From assembly GCA_963514005.1 (NCBI GenBank), contig OY740800.1, positions 30,256,001 to 30,320,000 of the forward strand: a stretch of 64,000 nt of DNA, given 5' to 3'. A model generated the notes under the pieces. That model did not search any database. It saw nothing but the letters and a program-made list of their open reading frames with translations, and was not told the DNA's origin. The stretch is from Raja brachyura. Its lineage: Eukaryota. Made by a program: the position numbers and the translations under genes. Within the stretch, counting starts at the first letter, position 1. Each line of letters starts with the position of its first letter. Positions 12,384 through 55,259 of this stretch are shown piece by piece.

Positions 12384-14763
12384 CTGTGGGGGTGAAATGC
12401 AGAACAGCAAGATAATATTTTATTCCTTCCATCTCATGTTGTTAGTTGCATAATCTAAAAGTGGGATTGTTTGTAATGTTGCAAACTGTACCACTTGTAT
12501 GGATTCATTTACAAATGACATTGTTTTCCCTCTATAAAACAGAATTTTATAGAGGAAACTACAGCAATAAAGCAGGACATTCTCTGCAGTAACATGCAAA
12601 TTATATATTTCAATCTGACCGCTTTACTGCCTCTTTAAATTAGTGGAATTGCCCAATCATACCCATACTTCAGAATAGTGCTGTCACTGCATGTGGCTTT
12701 CCAGAAAATATTGCAAACTAATTAAATTACTGGTTAAATTATACCTGCAGATCTGCAAAATGCAACCTGCACTTTGGAAGTTATCAATATACTGTAAACA
12801 AAATATCACAATCCGTGCAGGAAACAGTCTGAAGAAGGATCCTGAACCAAAGGTTGCCTGTGTGTTCACTCCAGATGCTGCCTGACCCATAGTTCATCCA
12901 TGACTTTGTGCATTGTACAGTAAAGTTTAGTTACCTGCATTCACGTTGATCAATCACCAGTCAACAATAATGACAGAAAGAAGAGACTGAATAACAAATA
13001 GTTTCATTGTAGCACCACTACTTGTCCGAACTTGCTTGTGCAAGAATGAAGACGCAAAAAATAATTTAGGAAGAAAATGCTTCAACTACTCTAAACTATT
13101 AAAAAAATTATCAATCTTATGAAGGAGGAGCAGTAAAGCAATAACTTCTCATCTGAACAAAACGACCCTTCAATCTATTTGCTCTTGTACATTCATATTC
13201 AGGGTAACAAAGAGAGAGCCAGTCTAACATCTCAGGCTGGAAATTGTAAAATGAGGCAAGCAGAATAGTTCCTGAAATCAAATGAAACCCAAAAGTACTA
13301 AAATTGAAACCTTACAGCTCTGCAGGATACTGTTGCAATTTGATGGCAGTACCAATTTCCTGTTGCGTTATTTACACAGATGGGGAGCATTTTGCTGTTT
13401 CAGGAACACTTAAACATTTTATGCTGACATTGTTTTCAAAAGCGCAGCACATTAATTCCTTTCCTCTTCCTCCACCACGCAGAGGCCTTTTCCCATTTTT
13501 TCTGCATTTTCTGACTACCTCTCCACCCCATCCCCAACACATGAAAAATGTGAAATTCCTTACTTTGGTGGTATTGTTTGAAATGAGTCAAGATTTGTTA
13601 GAGTTGTTATTTAATGGGGCTTCAATACTCTCCACACTAATCTCCCTCCAATTTCTTCTTGGCCTTCATGAACTGCTCAGTATCCTACCTGATCCTCAAT
13701 CTCCTCTGAACCATTCAGAATTTATCACCAACCTCCCATTCCCTGCACTTTTACTCTTATCCTCAAACCTTCCTTCGAGCAACCTCAGCACCTCACCCAC
13801 CAGCTATTTTCCTTGCACCCCTTGATTCTCACTGTACCTCCACTCTTTCTCCTTGCATTATCTATCCTACACCAGTTATCCTAGCACCCCTAAAATCTAT
13901 GCCCACTCCACTAGGGTCTACTGGTTAGCAGCCCAGAGGTCTAAACTACTGATCTAAAACCATGAGTTTGAATTGCACTATGCCAGCTAAGGACTTTAAG
14001 TTCAAGTAATTAAATAAATCATCAATCTATCAATAAAAACAGTGCATATAAAACTACTAGATTGTCGTAATCACCAATCTGAATCATTAAATGTATTTTG
14101 GGGAAGGAAAACTGTTGACTGCCCTTACCCAGTCTGGTCAAAAAGACTCCAGATCCAACATGTGCTTTGACGACTGCTTCTTCTTTTCAAGCGGCAATTA
14201 CTGCTGGCCAATAAATAAAAAGAAAATAGTTGCAGGTATAGGCCATTCGGCCCTTCCTGCACCTGGCCGATCATCCAAAATAGTAAGATTAAACGAGAAC
14301 TTACCAGTTTGAAGTTTGATCTTTATTTTATGAGGAGTTGCGATGAGGGATTTCGTGAAGAACCCGCCAGCACGCATGCGCGACATTTTTCAAAGCAGCG
14401 GTGTGGAATCACAGAACCAACAAACAAAGAAAAGACTTGTTATAGTAAGATTGAAGAGACTCTAATTACCAGTTGACTTTATGATCGAGGGTTGGGAGCG
14501 GAGGGCACGAAATCCCTCATCGCAACTCCTCATAAAATAAAGATCAAACTTCAAACTGGTAAGTTCTCGTTTAATCTTACTATTTCATTTCGGAGTCACG
14601 TGAGTGACTTCGTGAAAACTTCAAAGCTCTGTGATTTCATGCCCTGGACAATGTCCATGCTGTCACACACGCCACTGTAAGGATGGATAGGAGTAAACAA
14701 ATTTTCAGACTGCTTGTACTGAAAAATAATAATATTTATTAATAACAACAAAGAAAAAACCCC

Positions 14764-36860: not shown

Positions 36861-38792
36861 AGCAATGTTACAAAATTTTGGGATTTTAAAAATCAAGTCT
36901 GCAATTTATCCCATCAGATAAAGCATAAAAAGTTTAATTTGACACCTAATTCACTTTCATATCTTCCGTATTAAAAAAGTTATGGCCATTTTCATACTGA
37001 AATTAGCATCTTGCTCCCCATTGCCTTTCCATTGATTTAACTCAAAAGCTGTGATCTAGAACAGTCAAAAGCCCATAACTTTCTTAAAAATTAAGAGAAC
37101 TCAATGAAATTTTCAGTTATTATATTGAAGCAGTCTGAAACAAATATGAAACAATCTTACTTGGATGATCTGAAATTGAAGCATATAATTAGTTAGTTAT
37201 CTAATTGGGGAAGGCCGCTATCGGTGGCGGCATGACCAGGTGCTCAAGGTGGTTGCTGAGAGCATAGCCATTGCCATCTGCAACAGCAAACACCACCATG
37301 CCCCAAAGAAATCAATCACGTTTGTCAAAGCTGGAGAGAAGCCCCGACCACAACCAAAAACAAGGACGGGCCTCCTCTACACAGCCACTGACTGGCAGCT
37401 GCACGTCGATCTGGGCAAACAGCTGAAATTTCCACAGCACATCACAGCAACATCACTCCGGCCAGACATGATCATCACCTCCGAAGTGACAATACAGCTG
37501 ATCATTCTGGAACTGACAGTGCCCTGGGAAGAGCGTATTGAAGAGGCTAATGAGAGGAAGCGCGCAAAGTACCAGGAACTGGTGGAGATGTGCCAGGACA
37601 GAGCTGGAAGACATACTATGAGCCGATAGAGGTGGCCTGTAGAGGCTTTGCAGGACGCTCACTCTGCAAAGTCCTCAACCAGTTGGGCTTTACGGGGCTG
37701 GCAAAGAAGAGGGCCATTTCATCCGCAAGTGAAGCCGCAGAGAAAGCCACTAGGTGGCTTTGGATTAAGAGGGCTGATCTGTGGGCGGTTGCTGCTGGGA
37801 CACAAGTCGGGCCCTGATCAACCCCAGCTGGCTCGCCTGGGCGAGGGCGTCGGATGTTGTGAGACCCGAAAAACCCGATGACCCCAGGTCACATCACTGA
37901 GGATGTGTCCCAGCGCATCTAGAAGATGTATCTTTCACACCATTGACTGAACTCAAAAGCTGTGATCTAGAACAGTCAAAAGCCCATATCTTTCTTGAAA
38001 AATTAAGAGAACTCAATGAAATTTTCAGTTATTATAGATTGAAGCAGTCTGGAACAAATATGAAACAATCTTACTTGGATGATCTGAAATTAAAGCATAT
38101 AATTAGTAAGTTATCTAATTGTAGCTATTTACAAAATTCAATTACTAGATCTAAACATCTATCCATTTCTTAAGAAAATATAAACTTTTAAAAATTGCCT
38201 AAGTGTCCAAATAACATTCACACAATAACCCACAATATAACATGATTTTTATATCTCATTTTCATGAATTTGTAGGCCAAATGGAAGGAATTTAGTGTTT
38301 AATGCCTGTAAATTAACGGCCATTTAAATTTACTAGCGAGTGGGTTTTAGTGGAATGCGGTGGATTGGAACGTTGTGGTTTGCGGGGAAGTCGGTATGAA
38401 AAATACAGCCGGCTCATACATTTTATTTGTCCCCTTTTCGCAACATGAAAATGTGATTAAAGCCTTCCTAAAAACCAAGTTTTAATGTAAAAATAAACTG
38501 CACTTTATTTTCTCCCCTACGTTAGGTCCGTTCTGCTGTCGACGTTCAGAGCTTTAGAAGATGATTTTTAAACTACTCTAGTTAATCAATAATCTAGTGT
38601 AGTTTAAAAATACCTTCATGAATGAAATGTCGGAGCGATTTCTCTTTAGCGACAAAATCGCCCGACATGGATCGATTTGGACTGTCTAGAGAAAAACGGC
38701 ATTTTAAACCCGCCCCCCCTCTGAAAGGCGCCAAAGTCACGCACACAGAGCGGCAGAACTGCAGTGCCCCTAAAGGTAGGTATTGTAACATA
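36861..38792. mobile_element. Unclassified non-coding insertion with short terminal inverted repeats and an 8-bp TSD; hosts a HERO-like LINE
   Basis: caatgtac at 36853-36860 and 38793-38800; atgttacaa near the left end and ttgtaacat at the right end; the flanking LINE remnant rejoins across it. Confidence 0.65.
37208..37940 (+). mobile_element. HERO/NeSL-like RLE non-LTR retrotransposon, 5'-truncated 3' end
   Basis: GRYRWRHDQVL, LRPDM, LELTVPWEE...ERKRAKY, PIEVACRGF restriction-like endonuclease motifs plus 3'UTR. Confidence 0.85.
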
Positions 38793-46463: not shown

Positions 46464-46763
46464 AGCCTCGTTGTGCAATCTAACCTCCAGATTTACCCCT
46501 TTGGGCAACTGGCCAGAAAAAGTACCCAAGGACACTTACTTCACTCTGACACATGCCAGACAGAGTTTCTCACTCTCTAATGAATTACCTCGATCTTTAA
46601 CACACACTGCTTGCAGTGCAAACCAAACCATGAGAATCAAATACACAGGACAAGGTGTTAAGAAGTCCCTTGTGCCAATAGGTGGGGAGCATTTTATGAC
46701 ATTCGTTGATTGTTGAGAATGGTAGACGCTCAACATCCGGGGGGGGGGGGGGGTGGGGGTGGG

Positions 46764-48280
46764 AAATACGTATACGTACATCTTGGCCTGGGTAACCTTC
46801 AGGACAGTTGGGCACAGGACACATCATCAGTAGTGTACCCTTGCATCACTGGGTGTTTCGGCCTTTTAACACAATACACCCTCCACAAGGGCGGGCCGCT
46901 GCAGGATGATCAGCCCTCAGCACGTGTCCCGTGTCAAACTGTCCCAAAGATTCACCATGACGTACTTGGCTCAAGCAGAAAGACCCATGCTGGGCCCCAA
47001 ATCCAACGGCTGCTTCTTTCAGCCGCGTCTGAGAGTGATCTTATGGTCTTCCGCAGAGCCTGACCGTGGATTCCAAGCTCCTTCAGCAGTCTGATGGTAG
47101 ATGATGCAACAAATCCTCTGCATCCCACTTCAACTGGATAGACTTTGATGTTCCAGCCACGCTGCGTTGCCTCTGCTGCAAGCTCTGCGTAGCGCAGCTT
47201 CTTACGCTCATAGGCCTCCTCAACAGAGTTCTCCCATGGAACTGTGAGCTCTATGATGTAAGCAGTCTTCTGTGAAGGGGACCAGAACACCAAGTCTGGC
47301 CTGAGGTTGGTTAGAGCAATTTCAGGTGGAAAGATTAGTTGTCGACCGATGTCTGCCAACATCCTCCAGTCACGGGCCCTGCTTAGGTTTCCTTCTTCTG
47401 ATCTGGTGGAAGGATGTTTAGGCATTTTCTGTCCTTCTCGGACAAAGGTGGTTGCCCTTAAAGGGTGGTTGCTTGCTCTCGGAGGCAAGGAGTTGGTCGC
47501 ACACCGCCTGTTTTCAAGGGCTGTTGCCAGGCTTTTTAGTACCTGATTATGCCGCCACGTGTATCTTCCTTGCGTGAGGCTGGTCTTGCAGCCTACCATG
47601 ATGTGTTTGAGGGTCGCTGGAGTTGGGCAGAGGGCACAGGTTGGATCCTCGCCGTACCACTGATGGAGGTTCTTTGGTGATGGAAGCAAGTCATATGTCG
47701 CTCTGATGATGAAGCTGATCGTGCTTGATTCCATTTCCCATAGTTCTTTCCAGCTGATCTTCCTCCGCTCCACACCTTCCCACTGCATCCATTGCCCCTG
47801 TTTGGCAAGAGAGACCGCCTTTGCACTTCTTGCGGCCTCCTCCTGTCGCCGCACCTCCTCAACCACCAATGTCCTCCGCTCTGATGTTGTGGCCTTTTGC
47901 CAAGTTGGTTTACTTGTCGTAAGGCCAAAGCCTCCTCTTCCCTGCTGCACTTGCCCCACGACATCTTTGTGCCTCAGGGCTGATGAAGCTTGCTGTACGA
48001 CATCAGATGGTGTCCACTTCCGGCCAGTTACTAGGGGCAGCGCAAGAGCACTGATGGTCCTGTCTCTAGAGTCCCTCAGTGTCATCTGGAGTCTTACTTT
48101 AGAACACTTGTATTCCTCTGTTAGACTAGTTAGTGGTAGTTCCAGGACTCCTTTGCCATAGAGGCCGATGTTAGTTAGACATCGTGGGACACCGAGCCAT
48201 TTCTTCGCGTATGAAGTTATGGTTCGCTCCATCTTCTCCACAGTTGTTATTGGGGCTTCATAAACAGTCAGTGGCCAGTG
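46764..48280 (-). mobile_element. HERO/NeSL-like RLE non-LTR retrotransposon, 5'-truncated, ORF uninterrupted for more than 429 codons
   Basis: CALC...HIMVGC...RYTWRHNQVL zinc knuckle, LRPDL, IELTVPWE, ERKKLRY, PVEVGCRGF. Confidence 0.9.
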
Positions 48281-50389: not shown

Positions 50390-51260
50390 ATTTACTTCGG
50401 AGTCACGTGAGTGACTACATGAAGAAGCACCGCCTGGCGCTGGATCGGCATTACGTCGACGCTATCGGTAGAGGAAAGAGCTGCAGAGCGCAGCTCCAAC
50501 ACAGCGGTAGGTAAGAAAACGGCCCGCAGGTAAGTAAAATTATTTTACTTCCAGGGCGTTTTCTAAAAACTCCGTAGGCTGGTGGGTAAACCAGGAGGAG
50601 TTAAAATAAAAATTAAAATGTTTAAAAAATGTAGAAAGTCGGGACAGCAGATTATTGCGGAGCTGGTTCCGATACCGGTGGCCGTTGAAATACCCGTTAG
50701 TGAGCCTTTGGTTGCTCCACAAACAAAAACTTTGAAAACCCAGTGCCTAAAATGTAAAAGGAAGCTTGAAAGGCCTGAGGTTTCTGAAAGATCCTGAAGG
50801 AAAGCCTTTGGCTAAGAATGGATCTATTGGAGAAAATACTCCAAACAATAATCAACCAAGGGTCTAAGTACCCAGAATATTCCCAGGCAGCCCCTGAGGG
50901 GGTTCCATATCATGAATATGGTGCCAGTTTGAATTGGGAATTGAAACTCCAGTGCCTGGGATTGGGCTGGAGGTAGTCTCCTTGAACAAGTTTCAGGAGT
51001 ACCAGGGCTGTATGAGACGGACCCTGAAAGTGGTGATTGCGGTCAGGAGTACCCACCACAATACAAATCCAGGTGTGTCTGAGGGGCACAAAGTTTACTA
51101 TACCTGGAGGGGGCGGTGAGGCCATGGAAGGAAACCTGGCGGCCAATGTTAATTATATGGTCTCTCACCTGCCACAAAAAAAAAGCTGTTATGGTTGAGA
51201 CAGCAGATTTGGATTTAAACACCTATTTATTGTAAAAGTGCTCGCTTCGGCAGCACATAC

Positions 51261-51294
<34 letters not shown>

Positions 51295-54200
51295 GCGCAA
51301 GGATGACATGCAAATTCGTGAAGTGTTCCAAACACCTCAAAGAAGGTACCTATGGTGAATCCGGCTTTTTGGGCGCCAATGTCAGCAATAATGCGGGCGC
51401 AGGAATTACGATTCAAAGAATCCTCAAGCTAATTTTGGCATCACTGTCTTTTGGAAGACAAGCTGGAAGGTTGTGGAATGACCAAAGTTCAGAATAAACA
51501 TATGTTGGGTTTATTCTGCAACTCATTTTTGAGATAAATTATATAAAAAATGGAAGATTGCCATTCGGCCTCTTTTACATCCAAGATTTTCAGGGTTGTG
51601 CAGGGCAAGCAATGTTCCAGCTCTTGGTTATTTGTTCGGAGGAAACCTGTCTAAACAAATTAAAGAAATGGATGAAGAGGGAAAAAACTGTTGGCCTTGT
51701 GAAACCCTTCAGTTTTGGCCAGAAAGGCTGGTCATATGAGAAGGGGATTTGATTTTGGAGCTGGAACGAGCCGAGGCAGGAGTATGACAAGGAAGAATTA
51801 CCAGCCAGCACAGCCGAATGTACACCCATTTATTGGGAAAGGAGATCATTTCGTCCAGTTGGAGAGGTACAAAAACTTTATCCTATTAAAGAAGGATGTT
51901 TGGATGAACCTCAGATTGGTGGTAGACTCCGAATGTTTTATAATGAATGGGATGTATGGATCCATTGGGACACAATAAGCCTAATCATTCTTTGATGTTT
52001 CAGTTCTTGAAATAATTCAAATTGACAAAGAGGTTAAGAATTTGTGTGAGAAAGGAGTTATTGAGAAAACAGGAGAGGATCCACAACAATTGTATCAAAT
52101 ATTTTCCCCAGACCGAAGAAAGATGGGGGTTGTAGAATCATTTTAGATCTCACACAATTGAATACATTTGTCCAGTAAACATTTAAAATGGACACATTCA
52201 ACACTGCAATGCAGCTGGTATCAACAGGTTGTTGTATGGCTACAATAGATTGAAGGATGCATATTTTTTGGTCCCAATTCACCATAGTTTCGCAGGTAAT
52301 TAAAGTTTTATGGATGGGACAGCTGTGGCAATACAAGCATTACCTAATGGGTCAATTGGGCAACTAGATGCTAATTCAGCACCTAGATTGTTCACTTTAT
52401 TGTTGAAGCCAGCACTTGCACTGCCAAGGGCACAAAACACATCATTATGGCTTATCTAGATGACATTAATTGTTTATGCTAATCAGGAGTCAGCTGAAAA
52501 TCAGTCTCAGCAACTACAAGCCTGTTTGATAAGTTGGGTTCCTGATTTATCCAACAAAATCTAAGTTACAGCCATCCCAAACCATGGAATATCTGGGGTT
52601 TGTGATTTATTCAGTTACCACGTTGGTAACTTTACCAATGGATAAGGTGATAGATTGACAAATGTGTGTCAGAACCTGATTAACAAACCTTATCCCTCCA
52701 TCCGAGTAGTGCCAAGGCTATTGGGAAGTTGGTAGCAGCATCTGTAGCAGTGGATTTTGGCCCTCTGCATTACCAAAATCTTCAAAGGGCAAAAACTCAA
52801 GCGCTTATTCAGCGAGCAGGCCATTTGATAGGCCAATGCAATTGCCAAGGGAAATTTATCAGAATTACATTGGTGGATTGAGAATGTTCCACAAGCTGCT
52901 TAGAACATTTGGTCGTCAGCCAGTAGTGTTTTGCAAACTGACGCAGGTTCTCTCGGAAGGGGGGGGGGGGGACGGATTATGAGACCAGCTGCGGGGGCAG
53001 GTGGGCTGTCCAAGAGGATTTTTTGCTCCAAACATATGGTATTAATTATTTGGAGCTACTGGGAGCATTTATGGATTAAAAGCTTATTGTTCTACATTAA
53101 AGATTTACATGTCCATACACAAATAGACAATACCACAACTGTGGCATATATCAATCACATGGGTGGCGTCAGATCATGTGATCATCTGGTAACCAGATGT
53201 GGCAATGGTGTATTGGAAAAATATTGGTTCAGCTATTTATCTCCCAGGAAGAGACAATGTTGTGGCAGACAAAAGATCACGAATATTTAAAGACAATACA
53301 GAATGGATGTTATCCACAAATTTTCAAAAATATTGTCAGTCGGTATGGAGTACCGTACATTGATCTGTTTGCATCTAGACTGAATCACCAATTGCCCAAA
53401 TACGTGTCTTGGGAACACGATCCAGGGGCAGTAGCGGTGGATGCTTTCTCGTTACACTGGGGGAATACGTTTTTATACTTTTCCCCATTCTGTCCGATTG
53501 GGCAATGTCCCAAGGAAATAGCGCAAGATGCTGCCAAAGGCATTATTGGTGGTGCCAAAATGGGCCTACGCAGTCATGGTTCCCATTGATGCTTAAAATG
53601 ATTGTTGAACCATGTATGACAAATCCCAGTTGCGACAATCTGTTGACACAACCAGTAACAAAAGAAATTCGTCCATTGCATGATCATATGAATTGTTTAT
53701 CTGCAGGTTCTGACCAGACCATTGCAAGAGTTGAGCTGTTGGACAGGACCATGGTTGTATAGATGTAGCTTAGAGGAATAGCACTAAAAAAAAACACAAT
53801 TTTTGTTGCATATAACAAAATGGGAAGTTTTGTATACAGTCAAAGATATCTTATCATACTGCAAACATTTCAAATGTTTTGGAGTTCCTTGCTGGGCTAC
53901 ACTTGATGAGCATTTGAGCTATAGTGTCATTTATTGTGCTTGTAGTGCATTGTCATCCTATTTAGGACATATTTCTGATCGGGATTCAGTAGGGTCTCGC
54001 CCATTAATATCCTGATTCATGAAAGGTATTTTAATTAAATCCTCCCAAGCCCAGATATACAGAAATTTGGGATGTTAGCATTGTTCTCATTTTGCTGAAA
54101 CAATGGGCTCCAATTACTTCAATGTCTTTGCAGAAATTAACATTTAAGGTGGTTATGTTAATGGCATTGGTATCAGCTCAAAGAGTACAAACTTTGCAAT

Positions 54201-55259
54201 TATTACGGTTGGATTGCATGCATGTGACTACAGATAACATTGTGTTTATGTTTATGACCTGATCAAACAAAGCAGACCAGGGAGAACTGGAATTAAGGTA
54301 ATGTTTAAAGCGTATCCTACTGTGTGTAGTTAAGCATTTAACTCAATACATTGAGGTAACCAAAAATCTCAGAGGTTCTGAGAAAGCGTTATTGATAACA
54401 CACAAAAAGCCACATATAAAGTTCAGTTCAAACCATTTCTAGATGGTTAAAACAGGTTTGGGTCTAGCAGGAATAGACACTGATGTGTTTAAATCTCACT
54501 CCACTAGGGCGGCAGCTGCGTCCGCGGCGAAGGTACAGGATGTACCACTCGATGAAATTTTAAAGGCCGCAGGGTGGTGTAGAGTAGAAACATTTTCAAA
54601 GTTCTACAATAAACCTGTTGTCACGGTGCCAGGATTTGGACACACAGTACTGGGTTCTCTTTAAATGCTTGCTTTGTTTTATATTATCAATTTATACTAT
54701 CGATTTATGTTATCATTGACATCATTTGTCAATTTTCTTTTTGTAATTTTCCCCTGGGATAGAGGGGTTATTATTTTTAAAAAGTTGTTCTTTTTTATAG
54801 CTAAAAGACTTATTACATAAATTGTAACAATGTCTTAAAATACTATTTACTCACTACTGTGTTGACTAAACAGAGAGTCGTATGGAATGAATTTACGACA
54901 TAAAAAAAGAGCTTTAAAATCTTCACGTAGTCACTCACGTGACTCCGAAGTAAAATAGTAAGATTAAACGAGAACTTACCTGTTTGAAGTTTGATCTTTA
55001 TTTTATGAGGAGTTACGATGAGGGATTACGTGCCCTCCACTCCCAACCCTCATAATATAAATGATCATCTGGTAGTTCTAGTCTATTTTTGAGCCTTACC
55101 ATCTTACTCCGGCTATTGGTTCTGTGTTTTTCATGCCGCTGCTTTGAAGTATGCCGATCCAGCGCCAGGCGGGGCTTCTTCACGTAATCCCTCATCGTAA
55201 CTCCTCATAAAATAAAGATCAAACTTCGAACAGGTAAGTTCTCGTTTAATCTTACTATT
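50390..55259 (+). mobile_element. Second DIRS1-type retrotransposon, full-length termini, heavily decayed ORFs
   Basis: Left end atttacttcggagtcacgtgagtgac; ICR 54921-55032; right ITR and extension 55152-55259; remnants AYLDD, LQTDA, IDNTTTVAYINHMGG, IDLFAS, FKSHSTRAAA...AGW...FSKFY. Confidence 0.93.
51238..51330 (+). pseudogene. RNU6: U6 snRNA retrocopy (7-nt internal deletion, 3' U-tract missing) inside DIRS gag
   Basis: GTGCTCGCTTCGGCAGCACATACACTAAAATTGGAACGATACAGAGAAGATTAGCATG...CGCAAGGATGACATGCAAATTCGTGAAGTGTTCCA; flanked by the direct repeat aaacacct. Confidence 0.93.

Follow-up and report, generated by a model that had tools for sequence, protein, structure and literature searches.

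Two LINE copies in the window

The DNA analysed here (the window: 64,000 nt of Raja brachyura contig OY740800.1, positions 30,256,001 to 30,320,000 of the forward strand, assembly GCA_963514005.1) contains two 5'-truncated HERO-like LINEs, copy 1 of family 1 on the plus strand and copy 2 of family 2 on the minus strand, each with a structured motif towards its 3' end (Table 1). The protein sequences of the two copies are 40–43% identical (tblastn), and a frameshift near position 37605 interrupts the endonuclease part of copy 1. The 3' end of family 1 is common to 30 aligned loci. Alignment of 30 loci per family showed that both window copies are damaged, with private changes and broken stems. 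Flank duplications around copies of these elements are unusually long: ∼180 bp in the window, 168 bp at locus L357, at least 388 bp at L361 and 95 bp at L367. Elsewhere in the window lie a U6 snRNA copy with a 7-nt deletion (51238–51337), likely a retrocopy and the only hit when the window was scanned with Rfam at gathering score, and two copies (14277–14630 and 54908–55259) of a ∼350-bp MITE-like element with 80-bp terminal inverted repeats.

A covarying RNA with a kink-turn (k-turn) in the 3' UTR of HERO-like LINEs had previously been proposed for this locus. The 11-bp outer stem, the inner helices and the 3-nt bulge with tandem GA pairs described in copy 1 are all present, as is the second copy on the minus strand. 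The assignment to the 3' UTR holds for copy 1 only in part: the reading frame, which in family 1 ends inside the motif, crosses the 5' strand of the outer stem and terminates at the TGA of TGATCA in hairpin P2. Folding z-scores were −2.2 and −4.8 for the two window copies and −2.2 and −4.1 for their opposite strands, so that folding energy alone cannot pick the strand.

Table 1. Positions in the window of the two LINE copies and of the parts of their predicted hammerhead motifs
Feature	Position	Strand	Remarks
Copy 1: 5'-truncated family-1 HERO-like RLE LINE	37205..37939 (735 bp)	+	Endonuclease-domain end and tail; approximate bounds
Long (∼180 bp) target-site duplication around copy 1	Left 37029..37207, right 37940-38121	+	95% identical direct repeat
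P1 5' strand (outer stem)	37794..37804	+	Still coding in copy 1
P2 hairpin	37805..37829	+	Palindromic UGAUCA in loop; contains ORF stop TGA 37815-37817
Stem II 5' strand (hammerhead)	37830..37834	+	G10.1 = 37830; private change at 37832 in copy 1
NC ('I') helix 5' strand and non-bulged k-turn strand	37836..37844	+	3n C, G2n, A1n
Stem III strand and GUC triplet	37845..37851	+	Predicted cut between 37851/37852; private change 37848
Stem I 5' strand, linker, stem II 3' strand	37852..37867	+	Stem I 37852-37857 (first letter changed in copy 1), 5-nt linker, stem II GACCC 37863-37867
GAAA, stem III 3' strand, k-turn bulge, NC helix 3' strand	37868..37888	+	GAAA = G12-A15.1; stem III letter 37872 changed in copy 1; bulge GAU, then G1b-A2b
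Stem I 3' strand and CUGAGGA core	37891..37903	+	C3-A9 = 37897-37903
P1 3' strand	37904..37914	+	Directly after A9
Copy 2: 5'-truncated family-2 HERO-like LINE	46633..48277	-	1.6 kb; zinc knuckle and endonuclease region, deletion near ORF end, tail; 96% identical to long copies; by translation
Copy 2 motif	46802..46944	-	P1 46944-46923/46823-46802, P2 46922-46897, stem II 46896-46893/46863-46860
Copy 2 motif core		-	k-turn GA 46883-46882 and 46847-46846; GAAA 46859-46856; CUGAUGA 46830-46824
Copy 2 cleavage triplet GUA		-	Predicted cut between 46875/46874; private mismatch 46873 in stem I

The host elements

The 2.7-Gb genome holds 1,274 candidates for family 1 and 1,207 for family 2. The unit length of the autonomous element is 3.8–4.0 kb (3,972 nt in family 2), and open frames of 1,129 and 1,096 codons are found in L354 and L359, respectively. 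A C-X2-C zinc knuckle and the motifs RPD and ELT..E..K (PD..D/ExK endonuclease) were read by eye in the proteins, the RVT_1 domain was present in both relatives scanned, and the one relative that was tested gave structure matches to R2 and L1. These features fit a non-LTR retrotransposon of the RLE type with a single ORF for reverse transcriptase (RT), zinc knuckle and endonuclease. The name HERO, taken over from the original prediction, is compatible with non-specific insertion, which has been described for HERO elements (PMC4640811).

Two kinds of additional features were noticed in related elements. A DarT-like DNA ADP-ribosyltransferase domain follows the endonuclease in the same ORF in L187 (1850–3016) and L193 (2086–3234; Pfam PF14487, E-values 9e-22 and 1e-25), and frames similar to this extension occur in L159, L163, L174 and L199, all within one branch of related elements. 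Furthermore, tRNA-like stretches with A- and B-box-like sequences, recognised by eye, are located just behind the stop codon and before the place of the motif in L134, L143, L147, L161, L164, L183, L196 and L200; ARAGORN reported a tRNA gene in none of nine loci with such 3' UTR stretches. These stretches could constitute an internal Pol III promoter transcribing through the ribozyme.

A predicted hammerhead core in a rewired strand order

Alignment of 30 loci per family revealed two pseudoknotted stems in addition to the nested ones. In the first, the strand 3' of the stem III triplet (GUC or GUA) pairs with the strand immediately 5' of CUGANGA; in the second, the partner of the strand 5' of GAAA lies upstream of the k-turn arm. 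These correspond to hammerhead stems I and II. From 5' to 3' the motif thus reads P1, hairpin P2, stem II 5' strand, clasp helix, k-turn GA, stem III with an NUH triplet, stem I and a short linker, continuing with stem II 3' strand, GAAA, stem III, k-turn bulge, clasp helix, stem I, CUGANGA and P1. The core blocks are non-circularly permuted, running from the cleavage block through GAAA to CUGANGA, which is the order of type SGC. Stems I, II and III adjoin the core with A15.1–U16.1, as expected of a hammerhead. The fold is split between A9 and G10.1, where CUGANGA passes into P1, whose partner strand runs into P2 and then into G10.1, and this split takes the form of a four-way junction without unpaired bases. 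Stem III is connected by a k-turn to the clasp helix, which holds stems I and II.

It is very probable, as judged from these pairings and the conserved core, that the motif is a hammerhead ribozyme core in a rewired strand order. The predicted fold can be derived from the published type SGC by closing its two ends through a k-turn and placing a new opening, a four-way junction, between A9 and G10.1. The stems described earlier at this locus are real, but the description was incomplete, missing both pseudoknotted stems and hairpin P2; together with the k-turn, those stems are the scaffold around the ribozyme core. The accompanying remark that CUGANGA and GAAA leave a ribozyme open turned out to be the right lead. 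In three dimensions, stacked P1 and P2 would keep A9 beside G10.1, and the k-turn would bend stem III back onto the clasp helix. The palindrome UGAUCA frequently forms the loop of P2 (window positions 37814–37821 and 46913–46905, and many metagenomic motifs), while other lineages have other loops; the palindrome could allow formation of kissing dimers.

Several known RNA classes were considered and set aside. The classical hammerhead types I, II and III are circularly permuted three-way junctions, unlike the S-G-C order with two pseudoknots seen here, and Rfam yielded no hammerhead match for the motif even at E≤10. An unsplit SGC arrangement of stem II was rejected for the family, since the corresponding positions pair in only 39/96 and 47/96 cases, the level expected by chance, versus 115/120 with the upstream strand. 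For box C/D snoRNAs only sub-threshold matches were obtained (sR47, 9.6 bits with a cut-off of 40; sR52, 17.7 bits with a cut-off of 50), and the GA strands occur in the reverse order. In SECIS elements the bulged GA strand is on the 5' side, below an apical AAR loop; here the bulged strand is the 3' one, and no SECIS family of Rfam matched. Single-sequence folding, a method blind to pseudoknots, recovered P1, P2 and the stem III/clasp arm in three of five intact motifs and was not significant for L145 and L186.

Conservation and covariation

A genome search with a pattern of the shared core gave 1,817 matches as compared to none for the reversed pattern, placing the motif beyond chance; a pattern of the 3' half gave 2,448 matches and its control three. 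In this genome the motif is present in one non-autonomous derivative and in four or more LINE families. Metagenomic contigs were then scanned at the best 80 of 239 loci, the proteins of which are 33–80% identical to that of copy 2, with a descriptor that demanded UH, GAAA and CUGANGA in this order and stems I and III of at least 3 bp. Among these best 80 of 239 loci, 24 downstream regions matched, against 0/80 in each of four controls, and a relaxed descriptor added three of the remaining 56 (controls 0/56), for a total of 27/80. Of the 53 related loci without a match in this set, 18 have less than 300 nt of downstream sequence; most of the others group together in a single branch of a quick tree, and several terminate in simple repeats, as ordinary LINEs do. 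A viral collection returned 16 pattern matches, none of which was confirmed as the motif.

The quick tree comprised 75 of these 80 rows (L130, L131, L144, L170 and L183 were left out) and its deep branches are weak. On it the motif is clustered, requiring five changes versus 18.8 after shuffling, and is largely missing from one branch of 38 rows. This branch includes L165, in which an SGC hammerhead without the split lies ∼170 nt behind the ORF match, its CUGAUGA followed at once by a stem II of 7 bp, and L146, which, like L134, permits both the split and the unsplit form. These three are the exceptions to the split form. L165 is a possible link between the published SGC form and the split one.

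Altogether 28 motifs were parsed, and pairs were counted on 24 of them, namely one copy for each of the four local families and 20 metagenomic motifs; near-duplicates (L122, L167, L191 and L083) and cut, decayed or ambiguous motifs (L127, L128, L136 and L146) were left out. Anchored pairing was 118/120 for stem I, 115/120 for stem II with the upstream strand, 117/120 for stem III, 112/120 for P1, 111/120 for P2 and 140/144 for the clasp helix, the percentages for stem II, P1, P2 and the clasp being inflated by selection and registration of the motifs by pairing. Each of the six helices exceeded all 2,000 strand-swap shuffles and displayed 13–21 Watson–Crick pair types, although the motif sequences are related and the shuffle counts are therefore not probabilities. 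In a MAFFT alignment of 21 motifs, which was made from sequence only and fitted to no structure, GAAA and CUGA-GA were invariant columns, stems I and III were 91.8% paired as opposed to 32–57% in slid registers, and compensatory changes were seen in nine of ten pairs. Covariation is thus seen in all six helices, and for stems I and III also on the MAFFT alignment.

The variable positions follow the rules of hammerheads. CUGANGA, GAAA and NUH (H not G) are present in all 24 motifs, the descriptor having required them, and the G10.1–C11.1 pair in 23 of 24. Every one of the four letters occurs at N7, and N17 is limited to C, A and U, never being G; variation of these two positions within the hammerhead rules around a fixed core supports the identification as a hammerhead. 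The four-way junction lacks unpaired bases in all parsed motifs except L134, window copy 2 and L081, which was misparsed (copy 1 of the window gave no parse). Compared with shuffles of the 5' part of the motif itself, it is significant at 5% in 21 of the 28 motifs and falls short in the other seven.

A real but dispensable k-turn

The k-turn consensus (C stem, 3-nt bulge, G1b·A1n, A2b·G2n and NC stem) is present in both window copies, where the C stem is stem III and the NC stem is the clasp helix. Among the 28 parsed motifs the k-turn is canonical in 18, has one GA letter changed in five and is absent from five. A bulge takes its place there or, at L186:2261–2383, a three-way junction that bears an additional hairpin; the latter motif keeps both the hammerhead core and the four-way junction. 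In family 1, G2n is an A in 20 of 40 LINE-type copies versus 2 of 74 copies of the non-autonomous type. According to Eckert et al. the ends of stem III and the clasp are far apart in the crystal structure (PMC10085705); a kink would draw them together.

The k-turn itself and the covariation of its flanking stems are thus upheld, and only its conservation across the clade is partial. The original prediction went further and suggested a snoRNA/U4-like module for 15.5K/L7Ae-family proteins. L7Ae-class proteins contact the G1b and G2n guanines (PMC5579392), and the substitution of G2n in half of the LINE-type copies argues that binding is unnecessary; likewise, the optional nature of the k-turn, missing or altered as it is in ten motifs, argues against obligatory 15.5K/L7Ae binding. 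Such a module as the core function does not agree with these counts. The k-turn is, on the evidence of the alignments, a real yet dispensable joint, and selection would mainly keep something other than recruitment of a host protein.

Head–tail joints in genomic copies

The predicted ribozyme is located 89–234 nt inside the 3' end of the element. A cut at this position would leave the ORF without its priming tail, and even so genomic copies keep the entire motif. An explanation was sought at the head end, where a conserved motif gave 447 matches in the genome. Ninety were examined among the matches listed; 85 of these were family-1-type heads, 83 of them scorable. At least 15 nt of the element's own tail precede the head in 61 of the 83, and a second complete ribozyme does so in 20. 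The length of the joint is identical in 50 of 55 cases, and the upstream ribozyme is positioned 89 nt before the head joint. All five family-4 heads are likewise preceded by their own tail. The upstream tails of the 83 scored heads (again among the matches listed) stop at the head/tail joint in three cases and at the cut site in one, and pass the cut in 30; the stop rate is flat, at 0.0045–0.012 per base, with no rise at the unit joint or the cut.

The same arrangement was found outside family 1. Among 20 long loci there are three family-2 copies with a recognisable head, which is preceded by 193, 200 and 1,395 nt of the element's own 3' end. True terminal repeats in this set are present in L351, L352, L355, L357 and L358, with 90 nt of tail upstream in L351 and 188 nt in L352; L354 has only ∼13 nt, L359 is ambiguous, the terminal repeats of L361 and L367 were rejected as flank duplications, and the other long loci of this set have no tail–head joint. 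Five metagenomic loci have a head-like stretch 53–74 nt behind the core. A 535-nt non-autonomous element, retrozyme-like and consisting of the family-1 head and tail, often occurs in tandem (L069:1596–2131, L064, L083 and L298).

Upstream and downstream copies of the same tandem resemble each other: at 46 tandem loci they share 64 non-consensus letters, compared to a permuted mean of 18.9 and maximum of 36 (0/2,000). At one diagnostic site 32 of 40 informative pairs agree and eight disagree (six more are decayed). The discordant pairs are not obtainable from a single monomer circle and suggest that some templates were dimers or that some switching took place. The 3' flanks match the first letters of the head with decaying frequency (71, 45, 39, 29 and 26 of 75), as if the template had continued beyond the tail, although a target preference could produce the same pattern.

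How the element may be copied

The genomic signature as such needs just a template that is continuous through both joints, and cleavage is not implied by it. Type SGC hammerheads do cleave (PMC10085705). Eckert et al. assume block C to be uninterruptible, which makes activity of the split form an extrapolation; with its core positions kept, the hammerhead of HERO-like LINEs is nevertheless predicted to self-cleave, and we regard this as likely. Hammerhead repeats are known to give rise to circles, and retrozyme monomers are ligated by RtcB (PMC7229834). The explanation that we favour, and hold to be reasonably probable, is that the motif cuts the element RNA and closes it into a unit-length circle, which RT copies more than once round; a circular template as such appears probable to the same degree. 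A copy with two complete ribozymes would be transcribed and cut twice, releasing a unit RNA with 5'-OH and cyclic-phosphate ends that four helices would hold together until they are joined by the ribozyme itself or by RtcB. Target-primed reverse transcription by the element protein would begin at the tail/head joint within the circle and end at random, often beyond one unit, and so rebuild donors with two ribozymes.

One could instead imagine that the ribozyme cuts and its ends stay unligated, the ring being held by P1, stem II, the clasp and stem III, and that RT jumps the nick or passes between molecules as R2 does. We consider this unlikely. Four helices indeed span the cut site, end-to-end jumping has been reported for R2 (PMC12222951), and the discordant tandem pairs would fit some switching between molecules; however, the cut has left no scar (34 copies lack C17 and 1,516 have it, against 37 at a control position) and no truncation hot spot (2/30 copies truncated there and 2/30 at the control), nor is there a rise of the stop rate. 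Improbable, too, is internal priming at the tail of uncut, linear read-through transcripts of tandem arrays, with the ribozyme cutting only some RNAs in order to provide a translatable 5' end or to limit expression, like the 5' HDV ribozyme of R2. Tandem copies exist and could be transcribed through, the ribozyme upstream of the head joint could define a 5' end, and discordant pairs fit mixed arrays; yet if the cut made the 5' end of the template, a pile-up would be expected there, where 1 of 32 is seen, and the rare alleles common to a pair require one template copied twice. Least credible is a fold descended from a hammerhead but catalytically silent, to which the element's own protein or a host k-turn protein would bind, with tandems arising by jumps between linear unit RNAs or insertion into older copies: the canonical k-turn of most motifs, the location where LINE proteins bind their RNA (R2Tg requires 3' UTR structure; PMC12222951) and the competition of two strands for stem II in L134 and L146 speak for it, but all catalytic positions and the exclusion of G at N17 are kept across proteins down to 35–40% identity while the k-turn is lost or altered in 10/28, a large subfamily has spread with G2n changed to A, and only 3 of 73 stop at the head, where linear unit RNAs predict a pile of 5' ends.

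The circular template thus remains our preferred explanation. Stated in full, an active hammerhead would supply a clade of autonomous RLE LINEs with the covalently closed circular RNA through which they replicate. This hammerhead would represent a seventh natural wiring, with block C split by a perfect four-way junction and a k-turn scaffold, and RT, primed inside the circle, would roll past one unit and regenerate two ribozymes. For this complete scheme we see slightly better than even chances. If it is true, the circle would need cap-independent translation, the stated assumption of an uninterruptible CUGANGA block is broken, and non-circularly permuted hammerheads acquire a biological home; it would also explain why standard searches, in which Rfam has no match, miss such hammerheads, and the unsplit SGC form in sister lineages (L165) would record a step from the published permutation to the split form. 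LINEs and retrozymes would then be bridged by a LINE whose life cycle runs on a circular, internally primed template. Proteins of RLE LINEs are being developed as gene-insertion tools, and natural copying from stable circular RNA would, if true, be of practical interest.

Comparison with known systems

A literature search, which did not extend to Repbase Reports, most subscription papers or bioRxiv supplements, found no paper linking HERO with a hammerhead, a k-turn or circular RNA. No such link appears in the accessible text of PMC7650587, PMC4640811, PMC13725137, PMC12222951 and bioRxiv 10.64898/2026.07.22.740005, and HERO is unmentioned in that of PMC7229834 and of the same bioRxiv paper. 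The terms kink, k-turn, HERO and UTR do not occur in the main text of PMC10085705.

The closest published relatives of the fold are the type SGC hammerheads (HRIMA-1 and variants; Eckert et al. 2023, PMC10085705), which come from metatranscriptome contigs with hairpin ribozymes. The motif shares with them the S-G-C order, all core letters, a short linker between stems I and II and a clasp helix on the other strands of these stems. It differs in that block C is split, the 5' strand of stem II lies upstream of block S and A9 leads into P1 of a four-way junction; moreover, the ends are joined here, mostly via a k-turn, whereas in the published form the stem II strand directly follows CUGANGA. Like standard k-turns of the box C/D, U4 and Kt-7 type (PMC5579392), the one described here has a C stem, a 3-nt bulge, G1b·A1n and A2b·G2n; unlike them, it is an internal joint of a predicted ribozyme scaffold, optional in the clade and without a box C/D guide layout.

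Among the elements, R2 with its 5' HDV-like ribozyme (PMC12222951) is comparable as an RLE-type LINE with a self-cleaving ribozyme, such as is predicted here, and a structured 3' region. Its ribozyme is HDV-like, resides at the 5' end and goes with a linear template, whereas the putative hammerhead studied here is located inside the 3' end, in copies without a fixed 5' end. With non-LTR retrozymes and Penelope-like elements (PMC7229834; bioRxiv 10.64898/2026.07.22.740005) the LINEs share tandem genomic hammerhead copies, and the double cleavage, circular RNA and re-insertion of those elements are what we propose here. The hammerheads there are of type I, in elements that are non-coding or tied to Penelope; here they belong to autonomous elements with RT and a restriction-like endonuclease. 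As a non-autonomous tandem hammerhead unit, the 535-nt derivative is a candidate retrozyme, unlike the autonomous LINEs. What emerges from this comparison is a predicted new wiring of a known ribozyme class and, likely, a new LINE life cycle.
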